Assembly (NCBI GenBank): GCA_963766075.1
Contig: CAVYAN010000058.1
Coordinates: forward strand, 1-23,601
DNA from: an uncultured cyanobacterium
Lineage (GTDB): Bacteria > Cyanobacteriota > Cyanobacteriia > Leptolyngbyales > Leptolyngbyaceae
Length of the DNA: 23,601 bases
Direction: 5' to 3'
Below, in pieces: positions 6,001-9,000 of the stretch. The stretch's first letter is position 1. Every line of letters starts with the position of its first letter. A program made the position numbers.

Positions 6001-9000
6001 TAGAGTAGGAGGACTGTCATCCAGCACCCTTTTTCCACCGCCTCCTTTTCCAGCGTCTCCTTATTTTGCACGACGTTTTCCCTGACCTCAAGTTCCCATC
6101 CGGTGTGGTCAATCCAGCCCCGCTCACCTCTTTTACCCATGCTCCACGTTCGCAATCTCACCTATCATCCCCCCGCCACTCCCACGGCAGTCCTGAAGGA
6201 TGTCACGCTACAAATTGCCCCCCAGCAGTTAACCCTGGTGGTCGGTCCCAGTGGCTCTGGCAAAAGTACCCTCCTGGAAATTTTGGCGGGGCTGGCCGAA
6301 AAAACTCGGGGCACCCTCTCTTGGCGCGAACAGGAACTGACCGCCCTGCATTTGCAGCAACTCAGTGGGTTAGTCTTTCAGTTCCCCGAGCGGCACTTTT
6401 GTGGCAATACCATCCTGGAAGAATTGCGGTTGGGGCATCCCGATCTGGGCAGCGATCGCATTGAGTACGCTCTCACCGAAGTGGGACTGGCGCACCTCTC
6501 CCTACAAGCCTCTCCCCAAGCCCTCAGCGGTGGTCAGCAGCGCCGTCTGGCACTGGCAGTGCAACTTATTCGTCAGCCCCATATTTTGCTCTTGGATGAA
6601 CCGACAGCGGGCCTAGATTGGTCCATGCGTCGCCAGTTGATCGCCCTCCTGGCCAAGCTCAAAACCCATTGGAGTCTGTTTGTTGTCTCCCATGATGCCG
6701 CCGAAATGGTGGATATCGCCGATCAATGTTGGACCCTGAGCCATGGCAAACTCGCGGCTGTCGCGCCCGCAGATCTAAAAGCGCGCCCGAGCAGATCTTA
6801 GGCATTTTAGAGCGGCATCTTAGAGGCATCGGCAGTGTGGAGGCATCGTGGCGGGGCGGAGATGCCGCGATCGCAAACCCTTGCCTGGGCCATTTTTAGC
6901 GGAAAGAACCGGGCGAGTCAACTGGGGAAAAGAGGGCACCGATGGGGCACGAAGCAGCCTACAATCGAGGCATCGTGTTGATTGTGCCCTTGGACTATTT
7001 CCATGCCAGCTTTATATCCCGGATTGACTGCTTTTGACCCTGTTTTTGGCGCTGCGGCATTGCCGTTAGCCTTTCAGTTTACGTCGCCCGGACCCATCAT
7101 TTTTGACTGGGGTTGGCTGACTCTGCGCTGGTACGGGCTGCTCATTGCTTCGGCGGTACTCATTGGGGTTAACTTATCCCAGGCGCTGGCAAAACGGCGA
7201 CAGGTAGATCCAGAAGCGCTCGCGGATTTGGCCCTGTGGCTTGTGCTGGCAGCTATTCCGTCTGCCAGATTATATTATGTGCTGTTTCAATGGCGGGACT
7301 ACGCCGATCAGCCGGGAAAGATTCTCGCCATCTGGGAAGGAGGGATCGCCATCCATGGAGCCGTGATCGGTGGCTTATTGGCGAGTTTATTGTTTGCCCG
7401 CATTCGCCAAATCCCATTTTGGCAGTTGGCAGATTTAGTGGCCCCGTCGTTGATCCTGGGGCAGGCGATTGGGCGCTGGGGCAATTTTTTCAACTCCGAG
7501 GCGTTTGGCAGTCCAACCGACCTGCCCTGGAAACTGTTGATTCCGGAGACGCGGCGACCCCTTGGATCGGGGGCGATCGCCTATTACCATCCCACCTTTC
7601 TGTATGAATCGCTGTGGAACCTTGTGGTGTTTGGCATCCTGATGGGGCTATTTCGCCGCAGCATCCAACCCCATTCCCCCATCAAACGGGGCACGCTCTT
7701 TCTGGTCTATCTCGTAGGGTACGGCGCAGGGCGCGTGTGGATTGAAGGGTTACGTACCGATAGCCTGATGCTGGGCCCGTTGAAAATCGCTCAGGTTGTT
7801 AGCTTAATTGAAATGGGCGTGGGTATTGCCGGGTTGCTGTGGCTGTATGGGCGGCGGCGAGCCTTGCCGGATGTGGTTATGGGGGGGGCCAGAATCGGTG
7901 ACGCCACTGGCCCCGAACAATAAAGCTTTCTCAAAATATAAAAGTATAGAGAATCCAATCAAGCAATAAAAAACCCTGAAGGGGTAATCCTCCAGGGTTC
8001 AATCAGGGTGCATCTACCACTCTATTCTTCCACGGGCATCCCGTTTTTCCGGAAGCTTTTGCAATTGGACGTGCTTTTTAAGTCAATTTCCTCCGTAGTT
8101 TTCCCGCGATCGCCTCAGTGCTGTTTAGGGCGTAAAGTCGCCGCTTATCAAAAGCCATCCAGCAATGAAAAAGCCCCGAAGGGTTAATCTTCGGGGCAAA
8201 ATCAGGGTGCATCTACCACTCTATTCTTCTAAACCCATCACAATTATCCGGACATTCTGATAGCAATCTCAAATTTTGAAGGTGTGATTCTATTCCATCC
8301 GTTATCCGTACTGACTGAATCACCCTAGGAAATCACCCTACACCCACTGATTCACGCAGAATTCACTGAACCGTCACGTCTGGCACCATCACGTATCCTG
8401 ATAATAAAAAACCCTGAAGGGGTGAACCTTCAGGGCAAAATCAGGGTGCATCTACCATTCCTTTCTTCCCGATCGCCGCCGGGGATCCGGAACATTTGAG
8501 TGCAAACCTCAGTCCAGAAAAAATTTTCACCCAGAAATTTTTCCTAGAGGTTGGGTGACAGGCTCGGTCAGCAAGACAGTAACTCGATTCTCAAAACTCT
8601 GGAATCGCACAGTGGGGAAAACCCTGCCCCAAGACCTGTTGGCCGGGTCCGAATCTGCGCTAGGGTAAGGAGTGACTTTCTGTGGGTGGAATGTGTGGTG
8701 CTGCTGAGCCGTTCTAGGATTGCCCTATTCCTGCTGGCCAATGTGCTCTTGGCCAGTTGTGCCAATACGCCCTTGGGACAATCGCTGCAAAAATCCTTGG
8801 AGGCAGATCCCAAACTGCAATCCAGCCCCTTGGCGACCCCCATGGCGACGAGTATTACCCCATCGCCGCCGGTGGCGAGCAGTCCCACGCCCACCCCCTC
8901 CGCCGTTGGAGCCATGCCGCCGGACGCCGCACCCAGCGGAGTGGTCCAGAGCCCTGCTGTCCCAGGCTCTATAGATCGCGTCAAACCCTTTAGCGATCGC

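Follow-up and report, generated by a model that had tools for sequence, protein, structure and literature searches.

NsiR1 genes behind DIF1 promoters, and a sibling RNA with the same seed behind a HetR-type box, in a cyanobacterium very likely without heterocysts

Passages of a 2015 review describe NsiR1 as confined to heterocyst formers (PMC6596454). The window analysed here, a 23,601-nt stretch from an uncultured member of the Leptolyngbyaceae, contains a tandem array of three NsiR1 genes, which raises the question of what reads these genes in such a host and what their product might do there. Their mere presence is less of a surprise than the survey's finding implied. It took NsiR1 in such hosts to be unreported, which two sources show to be wrong. 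The supplement of a 2016 study (PMC4734099, file 6, row 202) tabulates 38 homologs, which by its columns read as 27 heterocystous and 11 non-heterocystous carriers, the latter including Trichodesmium, Arthrospira 8005, Microcoleus, Spirulina, Crinalium and Leptolyngbya 6406 and 7375; passages of a 2021 study list Limnospira RNA162 as NsiR1, with read counts, and tie it to hetR (PMC8400943). NsiR1 in non-heterocystous hosts is thus already known, and the genes described below add breadth to a tabulated fact.

Four NsiR1 genes with conserved anatomy

A search of the window with the Rfam model RF02399 (gathering cut-off 39 bits) returned three matches and no others up to E = 1, all on the minus strand and between 47.9 and 50.9 bits: copy 1 at 8404..8457 (50.7 bits), copy 2 at 8166..8218 (47.9 bits) and copy 3 at 7966..8019 (50.9 bits). 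A fourth gene lies behind murA at C28:28387-28438 and scores 59.7 bits. The genome as a whole holds six matches at E ≤ 0.001, four of them above the gathering cut-off, and the window and C28 copies align to the full model (positions 1–60). The survey had counted four bona fide genes, three in tandem plus the C28 copy, each with a fixed 18-nt 5′ end and a terminator hairpin and with array members about 200–240 nt apart, and every part of this description held. All four genes clear the cut-off (47.9–59.7 bits against 39), and the array starts are 199 and 239 nt apart. The 18-nt 5′ end has four exact sites in a whole-genome search, with no other site at zero or one mismatch, and the hairpins of copies 1, 2 and 3 fold with z-scores of −3.5, −4.3 and −4.0, none of 200 shuffles per copy doing as well. 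Likeness between copies is confined to promoter and gene, and the inter-copy spacers do not align.

The 5′ end of Nostoc NsiR1 was mapped to the G of GUAG (PMC4734099, supplement), two bases inside the Rfam model, and the seed is therefore taken as about 16 nt. A small ORF that begins at an AUG within the seed was rejected as a product, as the transcript has no ribosome site and the peptide is not conserved. As for context, the terminator of copy 3 faces the 3′ end of lgt (7003..7923, plus strand; TIGR00544, 250.7 bits), the convergent neighbour, and the divergent neighbour is a gene for an SLH-domain protein (8686..9801, plus strand; PF00395, 37.4 bits) whose start codon is uncertain, the longest ORF beginning at 8551. 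An lgt gene is convergent to NsiR1 in 4 other loci of 189.

Promoters of the type read by sigma-HetZ

Motif matching placed a DIF1 element, TCCGGA, on the minus strand ahead of each window copy, at 8486..8491 (copy 1), 8247..8252 (copy 2) and 8048..8053 (copy 3), and a −10 element, GAAGA, at 8464..8468 (after a 17-nt spacer), 8225..8229 and 8026..8030, respectively. With the C28 gene included, the exact TCCGGA near −35 that the survey had reported for each gene was seen in 4/4 copies, starting 34 nt (window) or 35 nt (C28) before model position 1 and followed after 17–18 nt by GAAGA or GAATA. The survey took DIF1 to mark HetR-dependent promoters. Work in Anabaena modifies this: passages of PMC13342950 identify DIF1 as the −35 recognition element of the ECF sigma factor HetZ, which PatU inhibits, and have HetR act on DIF1 promoters only via hetZ, so that dependence on HetR stands as an indirect effect and the direct reader is sigma-HetZ. 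In the supplement of that paper, nsiR1(1–12) is covered by a HetZ ChIP peak that is lower in a hetZ mutant, although for the leaky hetZ4-201 mutant the RNA column gives nsiR1 as ‘up’ where sigma-HetZ control would lead one to expect a decrease.

The window and C28 genes combine the two features that define the sigma-HetZ regulon, a TCCGGA-N16/17-TGNA-type promoter and a hetZ gene in the genome; in the window copies the −10 G is preceded by G or A, which sigma-HetZ tolerates although neither is the consensus. This −10 G is kept in 48/53 non-heterocystous and 50/50 Nostocales copies. In a survey of named loci (80 of the 124 stretches returned were analysed, and copies with less than 60 nt upstream were dropped), DIF1 was found within one mismatch in 133/133 cyanobacterial NsiR1 copies and in 0/2 non-cyanobacterial chance matches, against a background of 4.8% (0.8% for exact matches). 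By group labels that we assigned from record titles and presumed taxonomy, TCCGGA was exact in 33/53 non-heterocystous filamentous copies, the other 20 having one mismatch (mostly TCCTGA), and in 36/50 Nostocales copies, with one mismatch in 14. The host and this wider survey agree in placing the NsiR1/DIF1 module outside heterocyst formers as well as inside them, as had been proposed. In the host genome, intergenic DIF1-type sites with an 18-nt spacer number 83, compared with 35–53 at 15 other spacings.

The host and its HetR-PatX / HetZ-PatU genes

The host assembly (5.05 Mb in 126 contigs, 85% complete) contains hetR, as the survey had noted, at C61:35581-36486, together with hetZ (646 bits; cut-off 550), a hetZ′-like paralog, hetF on C30 and nifHDK. 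A patX-like ORF that ends in HRGSGR precedes hetR and has the promoter TCCTGA-N17-GTA; its peptide gave no match to solved structures. Another DIF1 promoter lies at the end of hetZ, ahead of a putative patU, whose name rests on its position behind hetZ because no NCBIfam or Pfam family matched it. No HetP family gene was found in this 85%-complete genome, and no HglE/PfaA-type synthase exceeded the cut-off in the host or two relatives, as against 3/3 Nostocales. In a HetF tree the host joins genomes of its own family, apart from a Nostocales clade that has 100/100 support; support is weak at most other forks. A named Leptolyngbyaceae member clusters there with further genomes assigned to that coded family. 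Judged by placement relative to Nostocales and by glycolipid synthase content, in a genome that is 85% complete, the host is very likely non-heterocystous.

Among 34 non-Nostocales loci, patX was found in 20, and all 20 have a DIF1-type promoter ahead of it (background 4.7%). Such a promoter had been predicted before patX-hetR in Leptolyngbya BL0902, in passages of PMC11298460 that do not mention NsiR1. The same passages describe PatX effects in BL0902 as largely HetR-independent, and what the circuit does in strains without heterocysts as a mystery. The circuit may therefore not be wired as in Anabaena.

NsiR1 tracks hetZ

NsiR1 exceeded the Rfam cut-off in 42 of 151 genomes of the phylum. 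In a sample of 70 of these (all 61 genomes of the class and 9 others), hetZ exceeded its own cut-off in exactly the same 42, and NsiR1 passed its threshold in none of the 28 genomes without a hetZ above cut-off. The same sample has hetR in 43 genomes, the additional one, G117, being without hetZ and without NsiR1; NsiR1 tracks hetZ better than hetR. Because the genomes are kin, this co-occurrence is a pattern rather than an independent test. Outside the 70, G172 has one NsiR1 and a HetZ-like gene that falls below the cut-off. HetP family genes are absent from 11 of the 42 NsiR1-positive genomes. A link between NsiR1 and nitrogen fixation was rejected, since presence fails to coincide in both directions among the 61: eight NsiR1-positive genomes of the 42 lack nifK, and seven nifK-positive genomes lack NsiR1. 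Within the host's family, 18/18 genomes match RF02399 and 29/29 carry the NsiR1 seed; all 26 matching genomes sampled pass the cut-off.

The survey had further stated that the NsiR1 genes are not next to hetF as in Nostoc. This is correct for the host, where no NsiR1 seed match lies beside hetF on C30, but it is particular to the host: NsiR1 is divergent to hetF in 48 of 189 DIF1-type loci, at least 20 of them outside Nostocales, and the arrangement is seen in Crinalium, Symploca, Phormidesmis and same-family genomes. Linkage to hetF characterises the Nostoc locus rather than the RF02399 family as such. Loss would most simply explain the missing hetF-linked copy.

A sibling RNA with a HetR-type box

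A fuzzy search for the seed revealed a fifth gene, which we call the sibling, on the minus strand at C82:16002-15951. It lies just upstream of argJ, between argJ and an aminotransferase-III gene that we take to be hemL-like. It has the 16-nt seed in common with NsiR1, followed by a different conserved stretch and a terminator. Its promoter is also different, with TGGCATACT at −16 to −8, a sigma70-type −10, and GGGGTGTTACCCC at C82:16043-16031, a HetR-type GGG-N5-CCC box at −40 to −30. GGG-N5-CCC is what HetR binding needs, according to passages of PMC4192349. The longer form GGGG-N5-CCCC occurs 131 times in the host genome.

The sibling is not one of the six own-genome RF02399 matches at E ≤ 0.001, and it stays below the gathering threshold; four homologs score 32.9–35.9 bits, also under the cut-off, and match no other family. 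Because of these scores it is hidden from routine annotation. No match to it turned up in the 2016 supplement (PMC4734099), in literature on the seed or on argJ/gatB with sRNA (subscription papers being mostly outside reach), or, compared by name, among the 26 HetR ChIP regions (PMC4192349). Within these searches, the sibling with its HetR-type box is the new part, one that NsiR1 annotation by Rfam cut-off overlooks.

A 27-letter pattern built from the first copies seen, with the box outside the pattern, counts this sequence type in 139/301 genomes of the class, Nostocales included, usually as one copy, and in 25/29 same-family genomes; a control pattern gave no matches. The copies fetched for closer comparison number 88 and come from 72 genomes, of which 69 were picked from the 139 so as to cover the families and 3 were added. 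GGG-N5-CCC was exact in 78/88 and within one mismatch in 83/88, against a background of 0.7%, and all 78 exact boxes lie at −41 to −39, fixed relative to the −10 element. The flanks fit the published tnantngnGGGtcaanCCCanca consensus, with C at −27 in 81% and A at −26 in 78%. A −10 hexamer is present in 85/88 copies, extended by TG in 64/88, and DIF1 within one mismatch in 0/88.

Among hetR-positive genomes the box is exact in 63/68, and the other five, all Nostocales, have one mismatch; among genomes without detected hetR it is missing in 3/4, a loss that rests on two lineages (G011, and G133 with G137 of one genus). The fourth, G176, keeps the box and has hetZ, so its missing hetR may be an assembly gap. 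G117, with hetR and no hetZ, has the sibling alone, box included. That the sibling is kept without the box in hetR-less genomes suggests a seed target that is older than, or independent of, the circuit. In 10/10 Nostocales loci fetched, argJ comes right after the sibling, and other lineages differ in the downstream gene; in G391, G002 and G093 siblings stand in tandem, each copy repeating box, −10 and terminator.

Targets of the seed

In Nostoc, NsiR1 represses hetF and alr3234 by mRNA pairing (passages of PMC9045159). Neither target applies in the host, where hetF has no cis copy beside it and the HetP family was not found (genome 85% complete). Duplex scans of a single genome have little power, and here a scan of 4225 start regions of the host gave 48 sites below −18 kcal/mol, no excess over 12 shuffled seeds, and a wider scan, with 14 sites at −20 or lower, stayed within the 1–16 of 12 shuffles. 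The top site among the 4225 start regions belongs to a kinase gene on C90. A Ser/Thr kinase gene on C84, which has a DIF1 promoter as well as a seed site, was rejected as a candidate, as neither feature recurs in the closest orthologs (17 of 21 relative loci readable). Across genomes, no recurring seed site was found in hetP-family start regions (30 loci). For the hetR 5′ region, 1 of 300 shuffles did as well as the seed in 20 Nostocales loci, compared with 83 of 300 in 7 other loci and 19 of 200 in 34 non-Nostocales loci (30 new and 4 earlier); with the signal limited to Nostocales loci, hetR was rejected as a universal seed target. The site at −70 in the Nostocales hetR leader may be an NsiR1 site or a −10 element.

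Discussion

The explanation that we hold with good confidence is that the NsiR1 genes of the window and C28 are sigma-HetZ-read units of a circuit that extends well beyond heterocyst formers and that their seed represses mRNAs, with the C82 sibling under HetR control. The four genes would be independent transcription units of about 52 nt, each read by HetZ–RNA polymerase at TCCGGA-N17/18-G(A/T)A, as shown in Anabaena and as motif and gene content indicate here. NsiR1 would then belong to the HetR-PatX / HetZ-PatU circuit, which the host appears to carry whole and which is found far beyond heterocyst formers. In each RNA a terminator that varies is predicted to follow a 16-nt seed that is single-stranded and does not vary, and by analogy with Nostoc this seed most likely represses mRNAs by pairing, where and when sigma-HetZ is active. 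At the sibling, this seed would instead be made from a promoter of sigma70 type whose −35 region is overlain by a HetR-type box. As it has the same seed behind such a box, HetR probably controls this seed twice, directly at the sibling and indirectly, via hetZ, at the arrays. From its place, centred on −35, the box might act in repression or, given the extended −10, in activation. A broader proposal, to which we give about an even chance, is that NsiR1 and the sibling are two ancient RNAs that share a seed, the arrays being sigma-HetZ targets and the sibling, which is mostly present once, at gatB/argJ, a direct HetR target; HetR would then govern the level of this seed along two paths, perhaps in different filament cells, and the patterning circuit would be older than heterocysts.

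What the seed does might be different: it could be a protein-binding or sponge motif, for an RNA-binding protein such as PatR or for another RNA, with copy number setting the dose and mRNA pairing in Nostoc a later, local addition. Such a motif would fit the contrast between a seed that does not vary within the class and known targets that occur unevenly (11/42 NsiR1-positive genomes have no HetP family gene, and the host has no hetF-linked copy), the lack of seed sites in the 30 hetP start regions, the lack of enrichment of complementary sites in the host scans and, by titration, the multi-copy arrays; passages of PMC11797042 also report NsiR1 as enriched in PatR CLIP-seq. Against it, pairing with alr3234 and hetF mRNA was shown experimentally in Nostoc (PMC9045159, in part), and the single-genome scans are weak in power. 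Pairing sRNAs usually carry a single-stranded 5′ seed before the terminator. NsiR1 is built in just this way, and we regard a protein-binding or sponge role as unlikely and repression by pairing as the better account. Far less probable, and largely refuted, is that these are vestigial or horizontally acquired heterocyst genes that the host does not use, or that a heterocyst former was mis-binned. A fragmented assembly (126 contigs, 85% complete) with nifHDK leaves some room for this; against it, HetF places the host among its family and apart from the Nostocales clade (100/100), no HglE/PfaA-type synthase exceeds the cut-off in the host and two relatives, as one does in 3/3 Nostocales, 18/18 same-family genomes have NsiR1, eight NsiR1-positive genomes lack nifK, and promoter elements are conserved where inter-copy spacers are not.

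The sibling's palindrome, too, has another possible reading, in which it is no HetR site: at the RNA level it would form a small hairpin, a terminator for the opposite strand aided by the A-run upstream, or it would serve another regulator, the sibling itself perhaps being a leader or attenuator of argJ. An A-rich tract does precede the palindrome in many copies, the gene is just upstream of argJ in the host and the 10 Nostocales loci, and G176 has the box with no hetR found. We doubt this reading nonetheless, because all 78 exact boxes keep their place at −41 to −39 relative to the −10, the flanks fit the tnantngnGGGtcaanCCCanca consensus, the downstream gene varies across lineages, and a leader needs no tandem repeats of box, −10 and terminator such as those of G391, G002 and G093.

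The sibling matters more than the breadth of NsiR1, which is already tabulated. Passages of PMC11298460 raise the question of HetR's function in filaments that form no heterocysts, and the sibling makes it testable: its promoter, with a HetR-type box and a distribution across the class, drives a short RNA that would give a direct, cheap readout in the existing hetR and patX mutants of Leptolyngbya BL0902. In Nostoc, antisense depletion or probes at the NsiR1 5′ end could also hit the sibling, and deletion of the array would be expected to leave the seed present through it.

Compared with NsiR1 of Nostoc/Anabaena sp. PCC 7120, the host genes have an identical 5′ seed, a terminator, a DIF1 promoter for each copy and a tandem array. 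A further mark of NsiR1 is cell-specific expression that follows nitrogen step-down and depends on HetR and NtcA. PCC 7120 has 12 copies and the host 3 + 1; the host array lies between lgt and the SLH-protein gene, whereas that of PCC 7120 is upstream of (and antisense to) hetF; and the host, unlike PCC 7120, is without the heterocyst glycolipid synthase and has no HetP family gene that we could find. With the non-heterocystous homologs in PMC4734099 and PMC8400943 the host shares the occurrence of NsiR1 outside heterocyst formers, with reads in Limnospira; the relevant portions of both sources give presence or counts, with no analysis there of promoter, array or hetZ link. The host resembles the sigma-HetZ regulon (PMC13342950, in part) in its −35/−10 promoter before NsiR1, patX and putative patU, and the core circuit (passages of PMC13342950 and PMC11298460) in holding hetR, hetZ, hetZ′, patX and hetF; reading of DIF1 by sigma-HetZ was shown in Anabaena only. 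The sibling shares with the direct HetR targets hetP and hetZ (PMC4192349, in part) the GGG-N5-CCC core and fitting flanks, and, unlike theirs, its box precedes an sRNA gene and is centred on the −35 of a sigma70-type promoter.

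Possible seed pairing upstream of hetR, and seed matches on viral contigs

About 70 nt upstream of the hetR start codon, Nostocales loci share a conserved GGGTGTATA(C/A)T stretch (L166, L170, L172, L177, L181 and L186), with which the invariant 5′ seed of NsiR1 is predicted to pair at energies down to -20.9 kcal/mol. Across 20 Nostocales loci, the pairing of the NsiR1 seed upstream of hetR was equalled by only 1 of 300 shuffled seeds. The stretch was found in none of the 34 hetR loci examined outside Nostocales. It may be a -10 element rather than a site of NsiR1 pairing. Upstream of hetR in another genome, G357 (locus L458), lies a patX-like ORF with seven RG(S/T)GR repeats spaced 30-33 nt apart.

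Among 37 seed matches on IMG/VR contigs, five (L235, L241, L245, L253 and L262) are followed 3′ by a hairpin and a U-rich tract. L241 and L253, which are near-identical to each other, carry a DIF1-type promoter, and the remaining three carry a sigma70-like -10. These five could possibly represent phage- or prophage-borne mimics of NsiR1, or else host DNA.

Further sites in the source genome

A degenerate NsiR1-like copy (L398; C108:2412-2464, plus strand; 31.5 bits) has one seed change, lacks both DIF1 and the HetR box, and sits amid transposase ORFs and poorly conserved ones. A candidate DIF1-type promoter at C12:41939 (plus strand), 277 nt upstream of a gene that we take to be MreB-like, is one among 65 such intergenic candidates in this genome, about half of which are expected by chance. 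In the window, a low-GC four-gene block on the minus strand (15592-19444), resembles a mobile defence cassette: alongside an ORF of 210 aa, it presumably encodes PIN-like, helix-turn-helix/ImmA-like and QueC-like proteins. A 1,114-aa ORF (11304-14648, plus strand) presumably encodes a phosphorylase-kinase-like glycoside hydrolase of family 15.

NsiR1 in other taxa and contexts

NsiR1 with a one-mismatch DIF1 promoter was present in two Chamaesiphon MAGs and one Synechococcus-labelled MAG (L053, L070 and L079), hosts that we assume to be unicellular. At 14 of 189 loci (including L055, L084, L098, L113, L115, L267 and L283), NsiR1 occupies a second conserved position, where it is divergent to a gene for a cobA-like methyltransferase; at 3 of these loci lgt is convergent, as it is at the window array.
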